Shown: positions 37,509 through 52,994, numbered from the stretch's first letter. The stretch is DNA of 64,000 bases from an uncultured Gemmatimonadales bacterium (GCA_963748815.1 CAVVKJ010000005.1:352001-416000), one strand, 5' to 3'. Translations and numbers: made by a program. The notes: generated by a model not told the origin, from the letters alone.

Positions 37509-39943
37509 ATGAATCTCCTCACATCCCTGCAGGGTCCCCTGGCCGGACGGTACCGGCTCGAGCGCGAGCTCGGGCGCGGCGGCATGGCCATCGTGTTCCT
37601 CGCCGAAGACCTCAAGCACCACCGCCAGGTAGCCATCAAGGTGCTCCGGCCGGAACTCGCCGCCTCGGTCGGCCACGATCGGTTTCTCCGGGAAATCACC
37701 CTCGCCGCCGGGCTGCAGCATCCGCATATCCTCCCGCTCCACGACAGCGGCGCCATCGAGGGCGATGGGGAGACGCTGCTCTTCTACGTGATGCCCTTTG
37801 TTCAGGGCCAGTCGCTGCGGCAGCGGCTGGATGAACAGGAGCGGCTTCCCCTTGACGAAGCCCTCGCGATCGCCCGGGAGGTGCTGAGCGCCCTCGAGTG
37901 CGCGCACACGGCCGGGGTTGTTCACCGCGACATCAAGCCCGAGAACATTCTCCTGTCCGGTGGTCACGCCCTCGTCGCCGACTTCGGCATCGCGGTCGCC
38001 GCGCAATCGACCCCCGGAGACTCACGGCTCACCGACGTCGGCTCGGTCGTCGGGACCCCTGCCTACATGAGCCCTGAGCAGGCTGCCGGCGAGCGCGACA
38101 TCGACGCCCGCAGCGACCTTTATGCCTTCGGATGCGTCCTCTTCGAAATGCTCGCGGGCACGCCGCCGTTCACGGGGCACTCCCCCCAGGCGATCATGGT
38201 CAAGCGGTTGACCGAGGATGCGCCCTCGGTGCGGCGGCTGCGCGAGGATGTGCCCGACGAGGTCAACGCGGCGCTCCAGCGGGTGCTCTCGCGCGGGCCG
38301 GCCGATCGCTTCCCCACGGCGGCCGCTTTCGCGGCGGCGTTGCAGCCCGGGCACGTGGGCGGGGCGACACCGGTGCCAGGGCCGGGGGGCCGGCCGCGCA
38401 GCCGGACGGTGCTCCCCGTCATCGGGCTCGTGGCCGTCGTGGTCTTCGGAATCCTGTGGTTTCTCCGGGCGCCCGCACCGCCGGCATCCGGGTGGCGGCT
38501 GGCGCTGACCGACCTGACGGTGGCGAGCCCGGACGCCTCGACGAACTATCTCCGCAGCGGCATTCCGGAATACCTTGTCGCGGAGCTCCATCGGCTGCCT
38601 GGTCTCGACGTGATCCCGATGAGCCTCTCTCGGCGAGACTCGGCCGTTACTTCGCCTGTGGAGCTTGGCCGAAAGCTGGGCGCCACGGCGGTGCTCACCG
38701 GTACGCTCGCACATTTTGGCGGCGCGCTGACCATCAACGCCGAACTGGTCCGGGTGTCCGACAGCGAATTGCTATGGACCGGGCACTTCGAGTATCCCGA
38801 CACCGACTACGCCGGCGTGATCCCCGCCGTCGTGGCCGGCATCGCGGACTCCCTGCAACTGCAGCTGAGCGGGGGCGCCCGCCGCGACGCGATCGAACGA
38901 TCCACGGTCAATCCCGTCGTGCTGGACCTGCTGCTGCGCGCCGGTCACCGGTGGATGCAGGGCATCGCCGGCGCCAGCGGCGACTCGGCCACCGTCGATT
39001 CGGCCCGGGTCCTCTACGCGAGGGTGCTCGAGCGCTCGCCGCGAAACCCGCGGGCCATCGCCGGATTGGGGAACTACTACTACATCTCCTACATCCGGGG
39101 GTGGGGCGTGCCCGGGGGCCTCTCGGCGGACGAGGTGCACGCCCGCGCCGACTCGCTGACCGACCTCGTCCTGTCGCTCGACAGCACGGTCATCATCTCC
39201 TACAATCCGGTCGTGGTCTCCCGGCTCTACCTGGATGACGACTTCGACGGTGCCGGCAAGGCCGTCGACAAGATGCTCGCACTGGATTCCGGGTACGCGG
39301 AGGCCTACCGGTACCGCGGAATCATCCGTCAGGAGCTCCTCGGCGACCTGCAGGGGGGCATCGCGGACTTTGAGCACTCGGTCGACCTGGAACCCAGCGT
39401 GCAGCGTCTCAACAGCCTCGCAGCGGCGCTGATGGCCGCTCGGCGGTATCAGGAAGCGGCGGCGGTCCTCGAGCGCTCGATGATGTCCCGCCCGAGTGCT
39501 GGCGCGATGTCTCGCCTTGTCACTGTCTACGACAAGCTCGGGCGGCCCGCCGACGCTATCCGCGTCCGGCGACTCATGGATTCGACGGGTGCATCCGCCG
39601 CGCCCTACGAGGTCGCACTCGCTGCTCGGGACACCGCGGGCTATACGCGCGCCCACCGGGCAGAGCTCCGCCACGTCGGCGGACTCGCTGATCGCCCGGC
39701 TGGATCGAGGCCGATGTCGTTCCCGCGGAGCGATTCAACGTGGCGGAGCTCCGGATCGGTGCGCTCCTCTGCGAGCTGGGCGACTCGAAGAAGGCCATGG
39801 ACCTCGTCGAGAGCCTCTACCGGATCCGCCCCAAGCGCTTGCGTTGGATCGTCACCAATGTGGACCTCGGCTGCCTCCGCGATGACCCGCGGTACCTCCC
39901 CATGGTCACGGCTGCCGGCCTGGAGCGCTACCTGCGGAACTGA
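37509..39943 (+). CDS. Ser/Thr protein kinase with TM, TolB_N-like and TPR-like regions (frameshift near 39680)
   Basis: LGRGGMA, VAIKVL, HRDIKPEN, DFGIA, GTPAYMSPEQ; C-terminal LRDDPRY in the 39740-39943 frame. Confidence 0.85.
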
Positions 39944-40040
39944 CGAGCCGGAGCATCGCCAGCTTGCCCCACCCCTCCCATTCGGGCTAAACTCCGTCCT
40001 GCCAATTTGGCTGTTTTCTCCTCCAGATTCCGGTTGGTCC

Positions 40041-40940
40041 ATGTCCAAGCGCGACTTCCTCTGCATCCCGGATTTCACCGCGGCCGAGCTGCTGTCCCTC
40101 CTGGACCTGGCGGCCCGAATGAAGTCCGGCGCGTATCAGGAGCGCCCGCTGACCGGCAAGACGCTGGCGATGATCTTCGCCAAGAGCTCGACCCGGACCC
40201 GCGTCTCCTTCGAGGTCGGTACCCTCCAGCTCGGGGGCCACGCGCTCTTCCTCTCGTCGCGCGACATCCAGCTGGGCCGGGGCGAGCCGATCCGGGACAC
40301 GGCACGCGTGCTCTCGCGGATGGTGGACGGCATCATGATCCGCACCTTCGCGCATGCGGATGTGGAGGAGCTGGCCCGGTTCGCCTCCGTGCCGGTCATC
40401 AACGGACTGACCGACCTGCTCCACCCCTGCCAGATCCTCGCCGACCTCCTGACCACCCTCGAGGCGTTCGGCACGCTCAAGGGGAAGACGGTGGCGTGGA
40501 TCGGCGACGGCAACAACATGTGCAACAGCTGGCTCCACGCCGCCGGAATCCTGGGTTTCGAGCTGCGCGTCGCCTGTCCCGAGGGCTACGAACCGGACCG
40601 CGCCATCTTCCAGCGGAACGCGACGTTGACCAAGCTGCTGGTGACGGTCGATCCCGACGAGGCGGCGGCGGGGGCGCACGTCGTCACGACCGACGTCTGG
40701 GCGTCCATGGGCCAGGAAAGCGAGGCGGCCCAGCGGGCGCAGGCGTTCAAGGGATATCTGGTGGACGAGGCGCTGATGCAGCGCGCCGACCCGGGCGCGA
40801 TCTTCCTGCACTGCCTCCCCGCGCACCGCGGGGAAGAGGTGACCGAGTCCGTGCTCGAAGGCCCGCAGTCGCGGGTGTGGGACGAGGCGGAGAACCGCCT
40901 CCACGTGCAGAAGGCCCTGATGGCGACGTTGATGGGGTAG
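40041..40940 (+). CDS. argF: Ornithine carbamoyltransferase
   Basis: SSTRTR, HPCQ, GDGNN, TDVWASMG, HCLP, EAENR. Confidence 0.95.
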   Translation: MSKRDFLCIPDFTAAELLSLLDLAARMKSGAYQERPLTGKTLAMIFAKSSTRTRVSFEVGTLQLGGHALFLSSRDIQLGRGEPIRDTARVLSRMVDGIMIRTFAHADVEELARFASVPVINGLTDLLHPCQILADLLTTLEAFGTLKGKTVAWIGDGNNMCNSWLHAAGILGFELRVACPEGYEPDRAIFQRNATLTKLLVTVDPDEAAAGAHVVTTDVWASMGQESEAAQRAQAFKGYLVDEALMQRADPGAIFLHCLPAHRGEEVTESVLEGPQSRVWDEAENRLHVQKALMATLMG

Positions 40941-42685: not shown

Positions 42686-44191
42686 ATGGCTGTGCAGATC
42701 CTCCTCACCATGGACGACCTCGAGACCGCAGTGCCCCTCAACGCCGCGCTCGAGAGCGCCGGCTTCGCGACGACGATGGTCTCGGCGATGGACGACGTCC
42801 GCTCCGTCTTTCGGCGCGAGGGCCCGGAGCTCCTCATCCTGACCGGCGCGGTGCACGAGTCGCCCGCCGTCGCCCTCGTCACGATGGCGCGCGAGGCCGA
42901 GGTGTCGACGCTCGCGCTCATCGAACCGACCGACTCCGAGCGGGCCGAGCGGGTCGCGCGCCTCGGCGTCACCGCGGTGATGAGCAAGCCGATCGTCCCC
43001 GACGACGTGGTCGGGGTCGCGGGGCGCCTCGTCGCACGGCGCCGTCTGCAGCAGCGGACCGGCATCAGCGGTGAGAGTGCCGCGGTGCAGGAAGTGCTCG
43101 TCAAGATCGAGCAGATGGCGCCGGTGTCGAGCACGGTGCTCGTCCAGGGCGAGTCGGGCACCGGGAAGGAACTGGTGGCGCGGGCCATCCACGATCTCTC
43201 GCCACGGGTGGGGAAGCCGTTCATCGCGGTGGACTGCGCCGCCATTCCCGACACGCTCCTGGAATCGGAACTGTTCGGGCACGAAAAGGGGGCGTTTACC
43301 GGCGCCGCCGAGCGGCGGCTCGGGCGGTTCGAGCTCGCCGACACCGGCACGATCTTCCTCGACGAAATCGGCGACATTCCCCCCTCCACGCAGGTCAAGC
43401 TGCTGCGGGTGCTGGAGAATCGCGCCTTCTTTCGCGTCGGCGGGACGCAGCCGATCAAGGTCGACGTGCGGGTGGTGGCCGCCACGAATCGCAACCTCCG
43501 CGATGCGGTGCAATTGGGTGAGTTCCGCGACGATTTGTATTACCGGCTCAGCGTGCTCAATATCTATCTTCCACCGCTCCGGGAGCGGCGGGAGGACATC
43601 CCCCTGCTGGTCCGGCGCTTCATCCGGGAGTTCGCCAAGGCCCACGACCGCCCCTTTCGGGGCATCGCGCCTGAGGCGCTGGAGCGGCTTGTTGCGGCAC
43701 CCTGGCCGGGGAACGTTCGCCAGCTCCGGAACCTGGTCGAATCGATGGTGGTGCTGGCCCCAGGGACCGAGATTCGCCCCAGCGACATCCCCCACGATGT
43801 GCTGGAAGGGGCGGGGTCCCTCCTGCCGGTGCGCCTCCCCCAGCCGGGGCGGGACGTTTCCGGTCAGGAATTGGAGTTTATCTTACGTAATATCATGGAC
43901 TTACGGCTCCAGATGGAGGAGCTCCGCCGCCGGATGGATTCGGGTCCCCAGCGGGTCCAGATCATCGACCTCGGGGATAGGCAGCCGGTGGCCGATCTGG
44001 CGGGAGACCTCAACGGGGAGGACCTCGGGGCCATCCTGTACCGGTCTGGCATGACAATGGCTGAGGTGGAGAAGAGGGCCATCGAGGCGGCCCTTGAGGA
44101 GCACCGCGGCAACCGTCGGAAAGCTGCGGAGGTCCTGGGGATCGGTGAGCGGACACTCTACCGGAAAATCAAGGCGTTCGAACTGGGCTAA
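42686..44191 (+). CDS. Sigma54 enhancer-binding protein with a degenerate receiver domain
   Basis: [23 protein letters not shown]-terminus is receiver-like (TMDD, KP) but has LILTG where the phospho-Asp would sit. Confidence 0.88.
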
Positions 44192-44292
44192 GTGGTTGTT
44201 TTCTTGATATTTGCGGGGTGTCACCTCTTGACAGTTCTCAGGTCCGGGCCAATATTGACGATGGCACGCTCCCCTAGGCCGTGGGGGAGGGC

Positions 44293-45987
44293 GTGATCTT
44301 TTCGATCGACTCCGAAGCCTGCGTGGCCTGTCTGGCCTGCGTCCGCGTCTGTCCGACGGAAGCGGTCGCCGTGGACGGGGAGCAGGTGCAGATCGTGGAT
44401 GAGGCGTGCATTGCGTGCGGCGAGTGTCTGCCGGCGTGCCCGCATCAGGCCATCCACGCGAGCGGAGAAATCGGTCGCGCGCTGACGGTCGCGGCTCGGG
44501 GCGACGGCATTCTGATCCTGAGTTCGGAAGCGACGGCGCACTTTTTCCCGGCTACGCCGGAGCAGGTGGTCAACGCCTGCTACGCGGCCGGGTTCCGCAC
44601 GGTGCATCGCGGGGTCATCGGCGATGAACTCGTGGCGGCGGAGTACTTGAGTCTCTGGCGTGACGAGGGGTGGGGCACGCTGATCCGGTCCACCGATCCG
44701 GTGGTGGTCGAGACGGTGCGCATCGATTACCCCGAGCTGGTGCCGTACCTGGCGCCGGTCACGATACCTGCGGTGGCGGAGGCGCGGTATCTTCGCGCGC
44801 AGCACGGGCAGGAGCTTCGCATCGTGTACGCCGGCGTCGCGGCGCCGCGGAACACGCCGGAGCTCGATGCCGCCGTCACCTTCGACGACCTCGAGCGGAT
44901 CTTTCAGTTGCGGGGCGTCTCGGTGCTCGCGCAGGCCGATTTCTTCGCGCGGATTCCCGAGGAACGGCGCCGGCACCTGAGCGCCGCGGGCGGCCTGCCG
45001 CTCGCCATGCTCGAGGAGGCGCGCCACGCGAGCCGCCGGTTCCGCACCATGCGGGGGCTCAAGCACCTGCCGGCGCTGGCCCAGGCGGTGGCGGTCGACC
45101 GGCTGGACCTGGGGTTCGTGGACCTGCTCTCCTTCGAGGGGGGGCTCGACCACCCGCTGCTCGGTCCGAAGGACCAGCTCTACTGGCGGCGCGCCCTCCT
45201 CGCGAGCGCGGAGCCGCCGCGGAGCCCGCGACCGGTGGTGGATGGAGCGGTGGTGGCGAGTATCGGGGCCACGTTCGACATCCGGCCCCGGCGGCTGGCG
45301 TCCGATCCGACCGCGGTGGCAGCCTTGCTCGACGCCATCGGTCCGGGGCCCAATGGGCGCCCTTGGGACTGCGGGGCCTGCGGCTTCACCACCTGCGCGC
45401 GGTTCGCGTCCGCGGCGGTGCTCGGCCGGGCGACGCTCCGCCAGTGCCCGCCGTACCAGGAGCGCCGCGCGGAAGAGGCCTCGCGCGAGGCGGCGGTGGA
45501 CCTGCTGACCGGACTCGCCACCTTCCGGGTGCTGCGCGACCGGCTGAGCCACGAGATTGAACGGAGCAAGCGCAGCGAGGAAGGGTTCGCGGTGCTGTTC
45601 ATCGACCTCGACCGCTTCAAGCTGCTGAACGACCGGTTCGGGCACGAGGCAGGCAACGAGGTCCTGAAGGCGGTGGCGGCGGAAATCCGGAGCGCAGTGC
45701 GCGCCTCCGACCTTGCCGCCCGCTACGGAGGCGACGAGTTCGTCGTCATCCTGACCCGCACCGACCTCCATGGCGCCCGCCGAGTGGCGGAGGCGCTTCG
45801 GGCCGGCATCGAAGGGGTCGGGCGCCGACTGGGGTACGAGGTCGGGGTCGTGACCGTTAGCATCGGGCTGGCCGAGTTCGACCCGGCGAGCCCCACCGAG
45901 GGCGACCTGCTGGTGACCGCCGATCGCGCCTTGTACCAGGCCAAGGCCACGGGCCGGAACGCCGTGGCCAACGAAGGGGCCGCCTGA
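44293..45987 (+). CDS. Diguanylate cyclase with 2x[4Fe-4S] ferredoxin, degenerate [FeFe]-hydrogenase-like domain and a second FeS motif
   Basis: CVACLACVRVCP, CIACGECLPACP, CGACGFTTC...CP, DLDRFK..ND.FGH, RASD-LAARY-GGDEF; GTG start after GGGAGG. Confidence 0.85.
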   Translation: MIFSIDSEACVACLACVRVCPTEAVAVDGEQVQIVDEACIACGECLPACPHQAIHASGEIGRALTVAARGDGILILSSEATAHFFPATPEQVVNACYAAGFRTVHRGVIGDELVAAEYLSLWRDEGWGTLIRSTDPVVVETVRIDYPELVPYLAPVTIPAVAEARYLRAQHGQELRIVYAGVAAPRNTPELDAAVTFDDLERIFQLRGVSVLAQADFFARIPEERRRHLSAAGGLPLAMLEEARHASRRFRTMRGLKHLPALAQAVAVDRLDLGFVDLLSFEGGLDHPLLGPKDQLYWRRALLASAEPPRSPRPVVDGAVVASIGATFDIRPRRLASDPTAVAALLDAIGPGPNGRPWDCGACGFTTCARFASAAVLGRATLRQCPPYQERRAEEASREAAVDLLTGLATFRVLRDRLSHEIERSKRSEEGFAVLFIDLDRFKLLNDRFGHEAGNEVLKAVAAEIRSAVRASDLAARYGGDEFVVILTRTDLHGARRVAEALRAGIEGVGRRLGYEVGVVTVSIGLAEFDPASPTEGDLLVTADRALYQAKATGRNAVANEGAA

Positions 45988-46031
45988 GGGCGGCCGCAGC
46001 CCCCACAGGCATTCAGCGACAGGACATCGAG

Positions 46032-46787
46032 ATGGCGTTCAATTCCGCGAGGCAGTCCGACGCCGGCTTCCAGGCCGCGCGCACCACGCCAAGTGGTGGG
46101 CACGGTGGTGAGGCGCCCGATCCCTGGGGCGTGCGCCGGGCGGAAAACCTCCTGACCACGCTCGAGGGGATTCTCTCCGCGCGGGTCGTCACCACGCCGC
46201 TCGGCGAGGTGAGCGAGGTGCACATCCTGGCCCAGTCGGGGCTCGCGCCGAAGCAGCTGGTGCGGAACATCGAGTCGGCGCTCCTGGCGCAGCTCGGCCT
46301 CCGGGTGGACCACCGCAAGATCAGCATCGCGCAGACGGCGGACGTCAAGCCGATCGAGGCGCTCGAAAAGGAGGCGGTGCGGAGCCAGGCGCTCCACCGG
46401 GCCATCCTCTTCGAGGACCTGACGGTGGCGCCGGGCAAGCGCGCGCACCGGATCACCATCAGCGTGAGCCTCAGCTTCCTCGGCCGGAAGGAAACGGCGG
46501 AAGAGGAGAGCAGTGACACGCCGCGGAGCCGGGTAGAGGCGGCGGCGCGGGCCACGGTCTTGGTGCTCGACCGGTTGCTGGAGGACTCGTCGGTGGCGCT
46601 CGAGGGGGCCAAGATCGTCCCCGCCTTCGACCGGGACTTCGTGTTCGTGGCGGTGCAGGGGCTGGGCGGGCGCGAGTCGCTCGTGCTGACCGGCAGCGCG
46701 CAGATCAAGGAAAGCGCCGAGCGGGCCGCGGTCTTTGCGGTGCTCGACGCAACCAACCGATGGACGGAACTCCGCCGACCGCGATAG
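46032..46787 (+). CDS. Hypothetical protein (EVHILA...KQLVRNIESAL...DHRKISIAQ motif)
   Basis: Host-like codon usage, RBS AGGA, soluble two-domain-looking sequence; no function assignable. Confidence 0.75.
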   Translation: MAFNSARQSDAGFQAARTTPSGGHGGEAPDPWGVRRAENLLTTLEGILSARVVTTPLGEVSEVHILAQSGLAPKQLVRNIESALLAQLGLRVDHRKISIAQTADVKPIEALEKEAVRSQALHRAILFEDLTVAPGKRAHRITISVSLSFLGRKETAEEESSDTPRSRVEAAARATVLVLDRLLEDSSVALEGAKIVPAFDRDFVFVAVQGLGGRESLVLTGSAQIKESAERAAVFAVLDATNRWTELRRPR

Positions 46788-46956
46788 GCGCGGGCGGCGA
46801 TTCTACCAACCCGAGCGGAGGGAACAGAGCGAGGTAGGGGGTCGAGTCTTCAAGAGGCAGCGGAGACTAGCGGACAACAGAGCGGAGCGTCTGGTAGGCC
46901 ATAGCGAGGCCGACCACTTCCCGAGTCACTGATGTACTCGAAGGGAGGTGACGCTC

Positions 46957-47037
46957 ATGTTGCAGATTACTTGGCTTGCCGCCGCTGTGAAGTTCGTGGC
47001 GAATCTGTTCCTGGCCGAAGGCCAGGACTGGGCCTAG
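46957..47037 (+). CDS. 26-aa hydrophobic peptide MLQITWLAAAVKFVANLFLAEGQDWA (candidate signalling peptide)
   Basis: Near-perfect SD AAGGGAGGTGA 5 nt before the ATG; stop lies 10 nt before the HD-GYP ORF; below the ORF-track cutoff. Confidence 0.7.
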   Translation: MLQITWLAAAVKFVANLFLAEGQDWA

Positions 47038-47047
47038 TTAGGGCCTG

Positions 47048-48484
47048 ATGCCTCGACCCCCCACCGAGCTGTTCCAATCCATGAGATCACTCACCAAGAC
47101 CAATCTGTTCATCGCGTTCATGGCTTCTGTCGCCGTGGCGCTGGGCGTGTTGGCTTGGCAGCATCGGCAGCCCTCCCCGGGCATTTGGCCGCTTCTCAGC
47201 TTCATCTTCATGGCGTTTCTGGTGGAGCAGAGCACTACGGAGCTCAAGGTTTCCGCGCGCGGGTCGACCTCCTTCGTGATGCATATGTCCGCCGGTTTGA
47301 TTTTTGGTGGATTTTGGGGTGGGGTAGTCGCAGCTTCCTCAACGGCTCTTGGGCAACTGTCGATTGGTAACCCACCAGCAAAGACGCTGTTCAATATCGC
47401 CCAGCGCGCGGCATCTGTGCTTATCGCTGTTCTTGTCTATCGCCTGCTCGAAGGCGGCCTACCTCCTGCATACATGCAAGTCGTTGGAACTGTTGAGTCC
47501 TCGGCGATTCAGCGGGACTTCTTCCTATTCTTCGCATATGCCGCAACGTACTTCGTAGTGAATTCTATGGCGGTGAGTGGGGTTGTGGCGCTGAGCGCGG
47601 AGCGCTCATTCCGAGATGTGTGGAGCCTCAACACCCGCGGTGTCATCGGGTACGACCTCGGGGCCAGCGCCATCGCCCTGCTGCTGGCGTGGCTCTATAC
47701 CTGGTTCCAGGCCACTTGGGAGCTCGGCTCCATCGGTCTGGTCCTGGTGGTGATTCCGATTGTGGCGGTGCGGCATGTGTACGGGCTCTACCACCAGTTG
47801 CAGGAGAGCGGCCAGGAACTCCTCCAGGTGATGGTCAAGGCCATCGAGGCCCGCGACCCCTACACCTCCGGCCACTCCCTCCGGGTGAGCCAGCTTTCCC
47901 GGCTCATTGCGCTGGAAATGGGCCTCCAGATTCGCGACGTGGAACAGGTGCACACCGCCGCGCTGCTGCACGACGTCGGCAAGATTCACGAGGAGTTCGC
48001 GCCGCTGCTGCGGAAGGAAGACCGGCTGACCGCCGACGAAACGGCGCTGATGCAGACCCACTCCGCCCGGAGCGCCGAGCTGGTGGGGATCATCTCGAAG
48101 TTTCGCGGCTTCATCCAGGAGTCGGTGCGCCACCACCACGAGCGGTGGGACGGGAAGGGATACCCGGCCGGCCTCTCCGGGCACGAGATCCCGCTGGCCT
48201 CCCGGATCATCCTGGTGGCCGACACCATCGACGCCATGACCACCGACCGCCCCTACCGGAAGCGGCTCCCGCTCGAAGTCGTCATCGCGGAGCTCCAGAA
48301 GTGCCGCGGCGGGCAGTTCGACCCCGAGGTGGTGGAACATGTGGTATCGTCCGTCGCGGTGCGACGTCTGATCACCGTCGGTGTCGAATCGTCTCCGATG
48401 CCTGCCACTGTCACAGTCTCCGACCCCGGCGCCACTCGTGCTGGATGGGCGAAGAAGTCGTTCTGGAAGGGGCGGTCGGCCTAG
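47048..48484 (+). CDS. Membrane-bound HD-GYP c-di-GMP phosphodiesterase (start may be 47081)
   Basis: About 7 hydrophobic segments, then AIEARDPYTSGHS.RV, LLHDVGK, HHHERWDGKGYP, DAMTTDRPYR. Confidence 0.9.
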   Translation: MPRPPTELFQSMRSLTKTNLFIAFMASVAVALGVLAWQHRQPSPGIWPLLSFIFMAFLVEQSTTELKVSARGSTSFVMHMSAGLIFGGFWGGVVAASSTALGQLSIGNPPAKTLFNIAQRAASVLIAVLVYRLLEGGLPPAYMQVVGTVESSAIQRDFFLFFAYAATYFVVNSMAVSGVVALSAERSFRDVWSLNTRGVIGYDLGASAIALLLAWLYTWFQATWELGSIGLVLVVIPIVAVRHVYGLYHQLQESGQELLQVMVKAIEARDPYTSGHSLRVSQLSRLIALEMGLQIRDVEQVHTAALLHDVGKIHEEFAPLLRKEDRLTADETALMQTHSARSAELVGIISKFRGFIQESVRHHHERWDGKGYPAGLSGHEIPLASRIILVADTIDAMTTDRPYRKRLPLEVVIAELQKCRGGQFDPEVVEHVVSSVAVRRLITVGVESSPMPATVTVSDPGATRAGWAKKSFWKGRSA

Positions 48485-48499
48485 CAGAGCCGAGACTTC

Positions 48500-51400
48500 T
48501 CAGATATCGAGCATCCCGAAAGCTCGCAGTTCATTTGCAGCTCCCAATGGGAGCTTAACCAGCCTCCTCCACATCTCCTCTCGTTCCCCCTCATCGGCAT
48601 CATTGGACTTGTGAATCGAGCCAGACCTTGGCGTTCAGGACCTCGGCCTGATCAATACTGTCTAGGGAATCTCTGGCGCGACAAGAGTGTCGCTAGGGCT
48701 AGTGCGCGCCTCTTCGATGGGGATGTCGCCGTTCGCGGCACTCTTGGCAAGCCATCGTGCGAAGGGACCAGCAAGAGAATCGGATTGAAGCTTCTCGCAT
48801 CTCCCCCGTCAGTGCCCCTATCGCGCTTTCCTGCGCCTCCCTGTTTCGTCCAAGTAAGGCGAGGACGTCGGCTGCGCGTAGCTGCCACAACTGGCGTACC
48901 CAACGTTGATCGACATGTTGAAGGGCTGCATTTCCTCGACGGAGTTCATCCAGGGCTTCCATTGTTTCACCACGAAGTGCATGGCCCTCTGCCAGGATGT
49001 AGTGGAGATTTTGATCAAGAATATCGATCTGTTGACTTCCACTTCTCGCCGGTGGCCCTGCTCGCCCATTGCAACTGGGCGTCCTGAATTGCCAAGTCGC
49101 GAATGGAACAGTGCAATGTTTGCAAGGAAAGAGCCGCAGCCGGCGCTCTTCGCCCATTTCACGCGCCGCAGCCACTCCACGCTCCCCGATAGCAAGCGCA
49201 ACTTCGTATTCGCCTAGGCTGCTATGGATAGCGCAACGCCCCAACAGTAGGGCGAGGTAGACTGAGTTCTTGATCTTGTTGGCCTCAAGGTCACCGATGA
49301 CCTCATCTATGACTTCAAGGCTGCGCGCTCGGTCGCCAGAGAAGTAGAGGCACAAGGCCTTGCCCAAGGGCGTATTCCCCCTTGTCCTCCAGGGAAAGTG
49401 CGCTGAACTCTTCGCTCTCAAGTTGCTTCCAGATGTCTGCGAGCAACGATCTGTCTCGGGTACTCCCGAAATAGTCTCGCTGCAATCCACAGTGCCCGAA
49501 GTCGCGTGTTGGGCTCTTCTGCCGATCTCGCTTCGCGGAGAAGATTCATTGCAATATCCCGACTCCGATCTGCCGTCCGGTCGTTTACTAGTTGTTCTGC
49601 GTAGAGCCGCAACACGTTTCGTCTTGTGAGAATCTCTGCGCGGGACGAGGCTCTGGACCGCGTCAAGCGACGCCATCGACTCCCGCATCCTCCCTTGTTC
49701 CTGGAGCGACTCTCCGAGCAGAAGGAGGGCTTCGCTCTTGTCCGGCTCCTTGAGCCGATCCATTGCCGTGGAGAGCCCACGCTCCGCCTCGTGCGGGGCC
49801 CCTCCGCGCATCGACTCCCGCGCCCCACGCAACAGATAGGGTGTCGCCTCATCGGGCCTCCCGGCGCGGATCAGGTGCCAGGCGATTTCCAGCCCCGGGA
49901 TCCGCCCGCCGTTCGCCTCGATGGCGAGCAGCCGGGAGACGACCTCGCCGTGCAGCGCCGTCCGCATCGGCTTGGGAATGCCGAGGTACGCATGCCCCCG
50001 CGTCAATTCGTTCACGAATTCGAGTCGCTCCTCCGTTTCGCGCAGCAACCGGGATGACCGGAGCGCCTCCATCGACTGACCCGTCGCGCCGAGCCCCAGG
50101 TCCACGATCTGGTACATCGGGAATTCGTTCAGTCTCGGCCCCAACACCGCCGCGAGCTGCAGCGCCAGACGTGCCGGTGCGTCGAGCCCCTCACAGATCC
50201 GGTCCAGCGCCATCCGGTAGGCATCTTCCGGGGGTGAGCGTTGACCCAACTCCTCGCGCATCGCCGGGACGGCGAGCGCGAGGCTGCCTTCGCCGCTGCT
50301 GATCCACTCGCTTACGAAGAGCTCGAGTGCGAGCGGATATCCCCCTGCGGCGCGGAGCATGGCGTCGCGCACCGATTTCCCCGGATCGGGACCGTCGGCG
50401 GTCAGCGTGTCGAGCATCTCGGCCGCCTCGTCCGGCGCCATTGGCGGCACCTCGAGGGAGACAAACCCGAGCCGGGTGTGGCTCTCGCGCAGGCGGGCGA
50501 TGTTCGGCGACTCGTTGGGACCCGTGGGCCGCGCGGCCAGCGCGATCATGACCCGCTCGGACTCGAACCGGCGGGCGAGAAGGTGGATCACGGACAGGCT
50601 GGCGTCGTCCGCCATGTGGAAGTCATCGACGACCAGCATCACCGGGGTCTCCTCGGCGATGGTCCGGAGCAGCGACTCCATCGCGTCGGTCACCCGAATG
50701 CGGAACGACTCCCCGTGGAGCTGCAGGGACGGGGGAAGGCTGGGGAATTGCTCCCGGAGCGCCGGAACCGCCTGGCTCAGGTCGGCCAACGACTGGGGAG
50801 AGGTGCCCAGCGCCTCGGGGCGCTCAAGCAGTCCGCGGACCAGCGCGCCGAGGGCGGCGTAGGGAATCTCCCGCTCCAACTCGTAGCACTGCACCCGGCT
50901 GGTGACGGCCCCGTCGAGGCTGACGGCCGTCATCAGCCGCTGCAGCAGGGTGCTCTTGCCGATGCCCGATTCGCCCAGGACCAGGGCGTGCGTGGGGACG
51001 CCGCGCGTGGTGCGCTCCCAGGCTTCGTACATCGTCTGGTACTCGGCGGTCCGACCGATGAAGGTGCGATCCCGCCATTGCTCGGTGGGGACGCGCGGGC
51101 GGTTGCCGTCGCCGCCCCCCTCGAGTGTCCCGCGGCGGAGGCGCCTCGCCATCGCCTCGAGCTGCTCGGAAGGCTCGGCGTGCAGTTCGGTATGGAGATC
51201 ATGCTTCCAGGTCTCGAACGCCTTGAGGGCGCCGATGCGGTCGCCGGCGAACGCCCGCGCTTCGATCCGTGCCCGGATCGCCGCTTCGCTCAGTGCATTG
51301 TGGCGCAGGGTCCGCTCGGCGAGTGGTTCGATGCCGGTGAAGTCTCCCGTCCGGCGGCAGTAGTCCATCTGGCGGACCAGTGCCGCCTCGATCGAGGGCC

Positions 51401-51836
51401 AGAGCCGGGCGCGCTGCTGGTCGCGCCAATGGTTGAAGCTGGGAGCGTCCGGGACGTCGAAGTCCTCGAGAAAGGCATCCACCTCGAGGGCAGGCAGAAG
51501 GTCCGTGGCCAGGACCTCCCCCCGTTGCAGCCGGTCCAGGTCACACTCCAGCTGGACCGTGGTGCGAATGGTGTAGGTGTCGCCGGGGAACGACTTGGGA
51601 CCCACCCGGTTCCGGAGTGCCCAGATGGCGGTCCCCATCGAATGGCGCGCCTCGTTCATCCCGGCGTTCGACCAAAGGAGGTCGGCAAGCCGCTCGCGAC
51701 GGATGGGAGCCCGCCCCTCCATGGTGAGATAGATCAGGAGCGCGAGCTGCTTTTGGGTCCTGAGGCGGATCGGGCTCCCGCTGGCGTCGAGGAGGGCGGG
51801 ATGACCCAGACAACGGAGGTATGCGGGCTTGCCCAT
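48500..51836 (-). CDS. SARP/AfsR-like regulator: wHTH-BTAD-AAA(STAND)-TPR (several frameshifts in the 3' third)
   Basis: LRCLG, KQLALLIYL, RERLADLLW, F.HWRDQQR (BTAD), GESGIGKS, VVDDFH; plausible C-terminus ...ELRAFGMLDI* ends at 48500. Confidence 0.8.
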
Positions 51837-52106
51837 CGAAGGCTCCGGTAGCGTGGTGCGGATACCATGGGGTCGCGGGCTCAACGGGGGATCAACGACG
51901 AGAGGATCAGGTGTTGAGAGATTGTAATGTTCCTCGCCTCCGCGATTTGTCCAGAGCCCTGCATCACGGTTCGCAAGCCTTTTCCCTGCAACGTGTTGCA
52001 CGTCACGGTACGGCCCCGATGTTGCGACTCTCTCCTTTGACTCGGTAGATTGCCCCGCCTTTGTGACCCCGCGCACTCCCCATTGCGCCTCAATCGGAGA
52101 TTCTCA

Positions 52107-52994
52107 ATGCGAAATACATCTCGCCTGCTGACCGGCGCCCTGCTGGCCACCACCATCGGCCTCGGCGCCTGCAGCGATTCGTCCGGCCCCAGCACCACCC
52201 CCCTCTCGGCTTCCAACGCCGCCGATGTCGGGGCCGCTGTGGCCAGCACCGCCGACCTGGCACTCGTCGGCATCGCCCCGACCATCCCCAATTTCGGGAC
52301 CGGATTCCCCCTCTTCTTCGCCAACGGTCGGTCAATTGGCGGCGGGATGACCTTCTCTCCCCCCGACTCGCTCCCCAACTGCCCCAGCGCCAGCAACCTG
52401 ACCGACACCGACGGTGACGGCGTGCCCGACAACGCCATGTGGACCTTCAGCGCCGCCGACTGCACCCAGACCGACATCGAGGGCAATCGGAGCGTGGTGA
52501 CCGGCACCGTGGTGCTCACCGATCCGGGCCTCACCGCCGGCTACGACCTGCAGCTCAACAGCCTGACCGGCCAGTACTACCAGAGCGGCGACACCAGCCC
52601 GGTCCTGCAGCTCATCATGGACGGCGACTGGTCGCTCCGCGGCACCAGCGAGACCATCGCCGCCGACCAGGACTACACCTACGTCCTGACCGTGCAGAAC
52701 GAGCGGGTGACGCTCGCCAACGACCTGGCCGTGGCCTTCAACGCCGCGAACGGCACCGCGATTTCCTGGGGCGTGCCGCTCCCCGACGGCACCATCAGCA
52801 TCGACGGCGCCTGGCGGGTGTCCTCGAGCCGAGAGACCCATGCGCTTACCCTGACCACCGTGACGCCGCTGTCGTACGACGCGGAGTGTGCGGGGATCAC
52901 GGCCGGCGTCATTGCGGCCCGCGGGACCGGCGGCACGGTGCGGGTCACCTGGACCGCCTGCGGCGTGCACACGGAGACGTTCACCGCCGATTGA
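52107..52994 (+). CDS. Hypothetical beta-rich lipoprotein
   Basis: RBS GGAG, lipobox LGAC, Ca-binding-like DTDGDGVPD, four further Cys. Confidence 0.75.
   Translation: MRNTSRLLTGALLATTIGLGACSDSSGPSTTPLSASNAADVGAAVASTADLALVGIAPTIPNFGTGFPLFFANGRSIGGGMTFSPPDSLPNCPSASNLTDTDGDGVPDNAMWTFSAADCTQTDIEGNRSVVTGTVVLTDPGLTAGYDLQLNSLTGQYYQSGDTSPVLQLIMDGDWSLRGTSETIAADQDYTYVLTVQNERVTLANDLAVAFNAANGTAISWGVPLPDGTISIDGAWRVSSSRETHALTLTTVTPLSYDAECAGITAGVIAARGTGGTVRVTWTACGVHTETFTAD

Follow-up and report, generated by a model that had tools for sequence, protein, structure and literature searches.

In the agr and ComQXP systems, a small peptide gene lies directly in front of the gene of a membrane sensor, peptide and sensor domain are both variable, and ComX carries a tryptophan near its C-terminus. 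MgrB is a small membrane protein that modulates the sensor PhoQ, and TRAP, HutP and CsrA are ligand-responsive RNA-binding regulators. Here, a locus with likenesses to all of these was analyzed. It is located in a stretch of 64,000 nucleotides (nt) from the genome of an uncultured Gemmatimonadales bacterium (CAVVKJ010000005.1, 352001-416000; the window), in which a 26-codon micropeptide gene with a structured leader RNA is placed between the gene of a protein without an assigned family (the hypothetical protein) and that of a predicted MASE9-HD-GYP phosphodiesterase of cyclic di-GMP (c-di-GMP). The genome is 86% complete with 69% GC, and its close relatives carry the label Gemmatimonadales. 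Because the assembly appears to hold indel errors, every feature was compared with relatives. In our reading, to which we give about an even chance, the peptide is a likely membrane-bound ligand of MASE9 that would set c-di-GMP breakdown, and the hypothetical protein would likely open a ribosome-binding site hidden in the RNA. Comparison of sequences established the order of the genes, the selection on the peptide as a coding sequence, the covariation of helices and the joint occurrence of RNA and hypothetical protein. Predicted are the folds of the RNA, of the hypothetical protein (KH-II-like plus LeuA-regulatory) and of MASE9 (S-component).

As in agr and ComQXP, the peptide gene directly precedes that of a membrane sensor, peptide and sensor domain vary, and a Trp is found near the C-terminus. 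In contrast to agr, the receptor would be a MASE9-HD-GYP protein instead of a histidine kinase, there is no conserved Cys/Ser ring, an RNA gate is added, and AgrB was found neither in the locus nor, as PF04647, in the 86% complete genome. Likewise, the locus, to which this search was confined, contains neither a ComQ prenyltransferase nor a ComP kinase. Repeated short purine motifs by a sequestered ribosome-binding site and a dedicated protein are shared with TRAP, HutP and CsrA. Unlike these regulators, the hypothetical protein combines a predicted KH-II-like with a LeuA-regulatory fold and has no sequence match in Pfam or PDB, and the motif is not in Rfam. CsrA itself (PF02599) was not found in the genome. 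Like MgrB and C. difficile CD1980.2, the micropeptide would be a short membrane-associated protein tied to signalling. The latter protein, of 58 aa, is c-di-GMP-linked, controlled by a riboswitch and placed downstream of c-di-GMP, and according to its description has no homologues outside C. difficile (PMC13724677).

Thermotoga maritima TM1467 and Streptomyces venezuelae HdgA have the same domain pair as the enzyme of the window. For MASE9, ligand binding within the membrane was proposed in a preprint whose main text names no ligand and does not contain the word 'peptide' (10.1101/2021.11.05.467447). HdgA, a membrane-bound protein, is expressed poorly and shows no phenotype, for which its authors blame a missing activating signal; unlike what is described here, that account, in its accessible part, mentions no peptide, RNA or regulator (PMC6205966). 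The 5TMR-LYT kinases BtsS, YpdA and KinB and the energy-coupling factor (ECF) S-components NikM/CbiM, FolT, BioY and RibU share their membrane fold with that predicted for MASE9. The fold serves sensing in kinases, and MASE and HD-GYP proteins are not mentioned in that study (PMC11109136). The known ligands of S-component folds are small metabolites or metals, and the output of the present module is a phosphodiesterase instead.

Conserved core and micropeptide gene

Loci were fetched with the HD-GYP protein and with the hypothetical protein; the two sets overlap and contain close kin. The HD-GYP protein yielded 29 other loci, 28 of them with upstream DNA, and an intact open reading frame (ORF) of 21-30 codons with Trp near its end was present in 27 of these 28, the remaining one being frameshifted. 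With the hypothetical protein, 80 loci were obtained, mostly from Gemmatimonadota-labelled records (2/80 were titled otherwise). Among the 60 that had at least 600 nt downstream, the RNA motif was detected in all and the small ORF in 58 by script; the other two were not inspected individually. Where close loci offered room, the HD-GYP gene followed in 53/53. Throughout the phylum, HD-GYP was found in 18 of 20 loci. Each of these 18 had the small ORF, recognized by eye in one case, and Trp was present in 17.

The order hypothetical protein, motif, peptide and HD-GYP was retained in records of Natranaerobius thermophilus and Subdoligranulum variabile (Bacillota), the former having a DUF5317 gene after HD-GYP. 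In an out-group phylum (Actinomycetota by inference), 38 of 81 genomes showed a MASE9 match, and a short hydrophobic ORF lay beside MASE9 in most of the 30 loci fetched. Hypothetical protein, AGCGGA-repeat RNA, peptide and MASE9-HD-GYP thus form, on sequence comparison, the conserved core, which recurs in Gemmatimonadota, the two Bacillota records and this third phylum. A preliminary description of the same DNA had listed five co-directional genes and a convergent regulator, and had named a lack of synteny among relatives as grounds for its refutation. The positions of all ORFs were confirmed, synteny held, and the short hydrophobic ORF ending near Trp for which it had suggested a search was found in relatives. 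Of its gene run, hypothetical protein, peptide and HD-GYP stand as core, the sigma54 activator and the GGDEF cyclase fall outside, and the structured RNA had been overlooked.

The micropeptide ORF is preceded by a strong Shine-Dalgarno sequence, GGGAGGT. Its ratio of nonsynonymous to synonymous polymorphism (pN/pS) was 0.30 for 10 same-genus sequences and 0.38 for 22 sequences, with 0.51-4.2 in the other five frames. We conclude from the aligned sequences that the ORF is coding and under purifying selection, which extends along the whole helix. This helix was more amphipathic than shuffled versions in 35/44 cases. Trp was invariant in the 44 aligned peptides, Trp and Glu alone being conserved, and in 58 of 62 peptides the Trp codon occupies position -1 to -3, near the C-terminus as in ComQXP. 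The net charge ranges from -3 to +2, and a positive N-region is not uniform. Searches of Pfam, NCBIfam and PDB sequences with the peptides and the hypothetical protein gave nothing significant.

Among the 30 out-group loci, the peptide gene is divergent from the MASE9 gene in three (L165, L178, L185) and duplicated in tandem in three others (L175, L183, L190), and therefore the peptide must act in trans. The three divergent genes have a different GC-rich leader without Rfam match, and the full hypothetical protein was not found in those genomes. In L170, L171 and L176, the ORF in front of MASE9 proteins of ~773 aa is of another kind, being non-hydrophobic, 36-39 codons long and with TTWS at its end. 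At L196 (Nonomuraea gerenzanensis), MASE9-HD-GYP follows a hydrophobic ORF of 34 codons that ends in WT, with neither AGCGGA leader nor hypothetical protein, which suggests that hdgA-type loci may have a peptide gene too.

Leader RNA and hypothetical protein

The leader is predicted to fold such that the ribosome-binding site of the peptide is hidden (Table 1), and one AGCGGA repeat overlaps the 5' arm of helix P1. In the P2 hairpin, both-side changes were observed in five of six pairs, a value as high being reached in 0/500 shuffles. For the window, the z of the fold was -4.9. For the arms of the long-range helix P0, duplex energies over 59 loci were -40.1 kcal/mol for cognate, -32.2 for non-cognate and -28.1 for shuffled pairs, and among 12 loci of other phyla, most are predicted to form a helix resembling P0. 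A search with the Rfam 15 covariance models left the leader unmatched in the window and 11 other loci; over the window and 27 other loci, no Rfam match fell on the leader and the sole match was one unrelated raiA RNA. At locus L192:71-279, a raiA RNA (168 bits) lies ~1 kb upstream of the peptide and MASE9-HD-GYP gene. In some genera (L025, L027, L028, L029; read by eye), a gene of ~600 nt with helix-turn-helix and receiver-like parts is inserted between hypothetical protein and leader.

The conserved HD-GYP ATG is found 25-54 nt past the peptide stop, immediately beyond P0, and the start proposed earlier at 47048 is replaced by the likely start, ATG 47081. That P0 ends 5 nt before this ATG, that the first in-frame HD-GYP ATG lacks a Shine-Dalgarno sequence in 41 of 43 loci and that most small ORFs have their Trp codon at -1 to -3 would also be seen if the small ORF acted in cis only, being translated merely to open P0 or to stall, as in TnaC, at the Trp codon beside its stop and thereby controlling HD-GYP translation, with the peptide jobless afterwards. 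We consider this quite unlikely. Leader-peptide attenuators always lie in cis upstream, yet here the gene, in cis at the window, is divergent or duplicated at the six out-group loci named above, and selection acts along the entire helix. The terminator of an attenuator was not seen either, as a simple scan for terminator-like sites in the stretch from peptide to HD-GYP had no hits, although attenuation at the level of translation may still occur.

The paired motif is a single copy in the genome of the window. Metatranscriptome contigs from eight studies were compared with the locus, and four had a stand-alone contig about within the P0 span (46919-47063; 46858-47031, with short unaligned ends; 46838-47056; 46820-47016). 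Two runs showed a high RNA depth at the peptide gene (563 and 102), which was left out of account since contig depth does not allow genes to be ranked and the runs had been picked by shared words. The stand-alone contigs, the single copy and the several repeats of one motif, one of them inside a hairpin loop, are consistent with a closed RNA of ~230 nt as the main product, a decoy titrating the hypothetical protein as CsrB titrates CsrA, the peptide being secondary. Among the explanations considered, this appears the least probable, as the paired motif has no second copy in the genome that the protein could regulate, the ORF is under coding selection, and peptides remain beside MASE9 at loci where motif and hypothetical protein were not found.

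A search with the hypothetical protein gave 3250 homologues, none in a named family, and the Atlas returned 'hypothetical' clusters only. In its AlphaFold model (predicted local distance difference test score, pLDDT, 88.9), the N-domain has the topology alpha-beta-beta-alpha-beta, and the C-domain matches the amino-acid-binding regulatory domain of LeuA/citramalate synthase (CMS) in fold (Foldseek E 4.9e-7; 3f6g (VIA): Z 9.7, root mean square deviation (rmsd) 3.0, 109 aligned). The N-domain matched BolA (5nfk, Z 7.4) and, weakly, ribosomal proteins; the GxxG loop of KH type II was not found in the consensus. In the 30 out-group loci, motif and protein occurred together in 14, motif without protein in none, protein without motif in three and neither in 13. 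The motif was always accompanied by a full-length homologue of the protein in the genome, often adjacent on the opposite strand; of the three exceptions with protein only, two show the motif elsewhere, at another MASE9 locus, and the third a variant repeat. As these loci include non-independent kin, the Fisher value for the co-occurrence is overstated. Because motif and protein co-occur, the hypothetical protein likely binds the leader RNA, the fold matches being mixed. Most genomes of the phylum hold its C-domain, either by itself or in fusions, and at locus L051 the family is represented twice, with HD-GYP missing.

MASE9 as candidate partner of the peptide

The membrane domain of the HD-GYP enzyme matched MASE9 (PF20972) with 33.5 bits at a cut-off of 24.3, and its Atlas neighbours were MASE9 clusters. 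The motifs HD, HHERWDGKGYP, RPYR and EARD (third-metal Glu) are present and invariant in 44 relatives, in line with the HD, HHExxDGxGYP, RxY[K/R] and third-metal Glu pattern of HD-GYP phosphodiesterases, and the enzyme is predicted to destroy c-di-GMP; specificity for cyclic GMP-AMP (cGAMP) was rejected, the motif being a canonical RxxR. The MASE9 of a relative (L116, 50% identical) models as an ECF S-component over residues 2-210 (4m5c: Z 13.8, rmsd 3.5, 190 aligned; 5d0y: Z 13.5; a dozen other S-components: Z 9.8-13.5), the likeness being one of fold and not of transport. Modelling of a complex between peptide and MASE9, as had been suggested in the preliminary description, was run on the L116 pair. 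It scored 0.36, the highest of three controls reaching 0.01, with a contact agreement of at least 87% and a partner pLDDT of at least 62. In the benchmark, the mark was reached by 116/157 solved and 2/215 mismatched pairs, and at scores of 0.60 or lower by 18 solved pairs and both mismatches. Such a score lends weak support and would be more often wrong than right unless the pairing was likely beforehand.

Divergence of the peptide followed that of MASE9 (partial rho 0.39) more than that of the TPR part of the convergent regulator (0.22) or of the hypothetical protein (0.04), and the Mantel value was 0.70 for MASE9 and 0.40-0.54 for the others. Mean identity was 0.42 for the peptide and 0.46 for MASE9, versus 0.74-0.79 for the HD domain and the hypothetical protein; in the pair L068/L075, peptide, MASE9 and HD were 0.33, 0.46 and 0.93 identical. 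DUF5317 (PF17248), the usual fourth partner, was found in 0/61 genomes of relatives, while 42/61 have HD-GYP, although a very divergent DUF5317 could escape the search. As DUF5317 was not found in the order Gemmatimonadales, MASE9 is the likeliest target of the peptide. The earlier proposal that the peptide is a ligand or modulator of the HD-GYP membrane domain thus gains indirect support from the S-component fold, the weak complex, the divergent and duplicated peptide genes and the lack of a DUF5317 match.

In a rival reading along the lines of that proposal, the peptide would be a secreted pheromone, of which a C-terminal EGxxW piece would be freed by general proteases or exporters and sensed outside by the MASE9 pocket, resulting in density-dependent control of c-di-GMP. 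S-component pockets open outward and are receptors in 5TMR kinases, according to PMC11109136. The hydrophobic N-part followed by a variable short tail, the fast evolution of both peptide and MASE9, close pairs such as L068/L075 that are sharply unlike in both, and the duplication of peptide genes at some loci are consistent with this idea as well. Secretion or processing nevertheless appears unlikely: family searches bore out that the locus is without a processing enzyme or dedicated exporter, AgrB was not found in the genome, the net charge of -3 to +2 comes without a uniform positive N-region, and trees show no cassette swapping. Low third-position GC of MASE9 was rejected as a mark of cassette exchange, since it holds in the window (0.65 vs 0.87-0.92) and is not general (below HD in 19/43). 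At 46957-49700 of the window, third-position GC falls from ~0.9 to ~0.6 over MASE9 and the TPR region, and in many relatives over the whole HD-GYP gene.

Neighbouring genes and proposed mechanism

The winged helix-turn-helix (wHTH)-BTAD-AAA-TPR architecture assigned earlier to the convergent regulator was recovered in intact relatives, which match BTAD, AAA_16 and, weakly, Trans_reg_C and TPR. Its stop had been placed 15 nt from that of HD-GYP; the inferred stop at 48502-48500 stands, but is reached only via several frame changes at ~49650-48600. Because 30/43 relatives have a long intact frame, sequencing error is the likely cause of these frameshifts rather than decay. Judged by its occurrence at 38/40 close loci with room and 17/18 phylum-wide loci with HD-GYP, the STAND-TPR regulator is a conserved neighbour of the module. 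Together with a highly variable TPR region (mean identity 0.25) and its partial rho to the peptide, this would also fit a model in which the regulator is an RRNPP-like receptor of the peptide and the phosphodiesterase a regulated passenger. We regard this as very doubtful, as the annotated features of the Natranaerobius locus include no gene of this kind, the regulator tracks the peptide less than MASE9 does, and its BTAD and STAND ATPase architecture is unlike the HTH-TPR without ATPase of RRNPP proteins.

Upstream of the core, the Fe-S GGDEF gene was present in 68/68 and the sigma54 gene in 63/63 close loci with room, and in 13 and 14 of the 18 phylum-wide loci with HD-GYP. By this distribution, the GGDEF gene is a lineage-specific first gene of the operon. 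TTGAC was found within 90 nt of its start in 69/69 loci, and the sigma54 gene is therefore probably in another transcript. A common transcript, as drawn in the preliminary description, was not supported, since the promoter-like site follows the sigma54 gene, which probably closes the argF-gcvT-mog run upstream and does not belong to the core. The pseudo-receiver of this activator was borne out: a Pfam receiver match was not obtained, and Thr replaces the phospho-Asp in 20/20 motif variants listed from relatives. Sigma54 promoters were found before the hypothetical protein in 0/80 and before the leader in 1/80 loci. In the GGDEF domain, active site and RxxD inhibitory site are intact in 67/67. 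All 67 have Asn at the guanine-reading position (PleD D344), neither the canonical Asp nor the Ser of Hypr (cGAMP synthase) enzymes, a criterion taken from PMC6456294 and PMC7288161. Five other GGDEFs located by pattern in the genome have Asp at this position, and substrate or activity of the present GGDEF may differ. Elsewhere in the window, a Ser/Thr kinase-TPR gene and ornithine carbamoyltransferase share one 1143-aa frame (37509-40940), likely an indel artefact, and a lipoprotein-like gene without Pfam match (52050-52994) is divergent from the regulator, with homologues at the same place in 2/20 loci.

Table 1. Features of the locus, in positions of the window; the core is listed first, followed by its neighbours.
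Feature	Position	Strand	Remarks
Hypothetical protein	46032..46787	+	KH-II/BolA/CDF-CTD-like (cation diffusion facilitator C-terminal domain) N-domain and LeuA/CMS regulatory C-domain predicted; no Pfam/NCBIfam family
P0 5' arm	46821..46851	+	Long-range helix enclosing leader and peptide gene
Leader RNA	46859..46956	+	AGCGGA repeats at 46859, 46869 and 46881; one further at 46814
P1 helix	46885-46891:46950-46956	+	Invariant; extends to peptide start codon
P2 hairpin	46893-46915	+	TAGCGA loop; covarying
P3 helix	46916-46922 with Shine-Dalgarno 46943-46949	+	Predicted fold
Micropeptide gene, 26 codons	46957..47037	+	Amphipathic hydrophobic helix, then EGxxW-x
P0 3' arm	47047..47075	+	Stops 5 nt before likely HD-GYP start
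MASE9-HD-GYP phosphodiesterase	47081..48484	+	Frame open from 47048; MASE9 and HD_5; canonical catalytic motifs
Convergent wHTH-BTAD-STAND ATPase-TPR regulator	48500..51836	-	C-terminal part frameshifted several times in assembly
Pseudo-receiver sigma54 activator	42686..44191	+	Sigma54_activat and HTH_8; GAFTGA intact
Sigma70-type promoter-like site, TTGACA-17-AATATT	44228..44256	+	1 found, 0.6 expected by chance
Fe-S/hydrogenase-like sensor-GGDEF	44281..45987	+	Fer4, Fe_hyd_lg_C, FeS, GGDEF

For the reading preferred here, in which the peptide is a ligand of MASE9, the following order of events is conceivable. Transcription of the operon would start at the sigma70-type promoter at 44228. With P1 and P3 closed, the peptide would not be translated. 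The hypothetical protein, perhaps sensing an amino-acid-like ligand via its LeuA-type domain, would bind the AGCGGA repeats and free the start. Ribosomes completing the peptide would then loosen P0 and open the HD-GYP start that lacks a Shine-Dalgarno sequence, such that peptide and HD-GYP would be made together; P0 may also yield a separate stable peptide mRNA of ~230 nt. The peptide helix would reside in the membrane with its EGxxW tail docked on MASE9, which may activate or inhibit the enzyme. In Gemmatimonadales, the Fe-S GGDEF gene would add an opposing, probably redox-linked input.

Several observations weigh against this reading. P1 and most of P3 are invariant across the loci and, as they do not vary, have no covariation support, and just 15/59 cognate P0 pairs rank in the top three. 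Contigs of three of the eight metatranscriptome runs bridge the gene of the hypothetical protein into the leader and one of eight does not cover the leader. Since shared words had guided the choice of the runs, and the comparison covered RNA runs only, the stand-alone contigs are a weak hint. The top structural matches of the N-domain of the hypothetical protein (Z 8-9) are adenylation subdomains, CDF C-terminal domains and EscJ, with no RNA-binding protein among them. Trp is not universal, being absent from the last four residues of 4/62 peptides in Gemmatimonadales and of several peptides from other phyla. The complex was controlled with unrelated proteins and no other hydrophobic helices, and the divergence correlations use non-independent pairs and adjacent DNA. 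Pherotype-style cassette swapping was not supported, as by parsimony the peptide types need no fewer changes on the MASE9 tree than on the backbone tree (10 versus 9 at nine types).

Literature searches found no published description of the module, with most subscription papers, the MASE9-alignment supplement and the supplements of RNA-motif surveys outside their reach, and no peptide regulator acting directly on an HD-GYP or c-di-GMP phosphodiesterase. Taken together, the module is real, undescribed and multi-phylum. It has the full membership of none of the known systems tested, three of its parts are undescribed, and each of its steps follows a logic akin to that of known systems. A more far-reaching version would be a kinase-free peptide signalling across several phyla, in which a micropeptide with a Trp tail is set free and sensed by a receptor-phosphodiesterase with S-component fold, and a new, amino-acid-sensing family of RNA-binding proteins gates the output on a new structured RNA, by which a stable mini-mRNA is excised as well; this version is conceivable, if rather doubtful.

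MASE9 is without a known ligand, and its one studied member stayed silent under laboratory conditions because a signal was missing. The module offers a candidate MASE9 ligand that was missed by annotation, a new RNA motif and a likely binding protein for it. Natranaerobius and Subdoligranulum are cultured carriers of the module, and the Gemmatimonadales copy narrows the partner of the peptide, DUF5317 not having been found with the module there.

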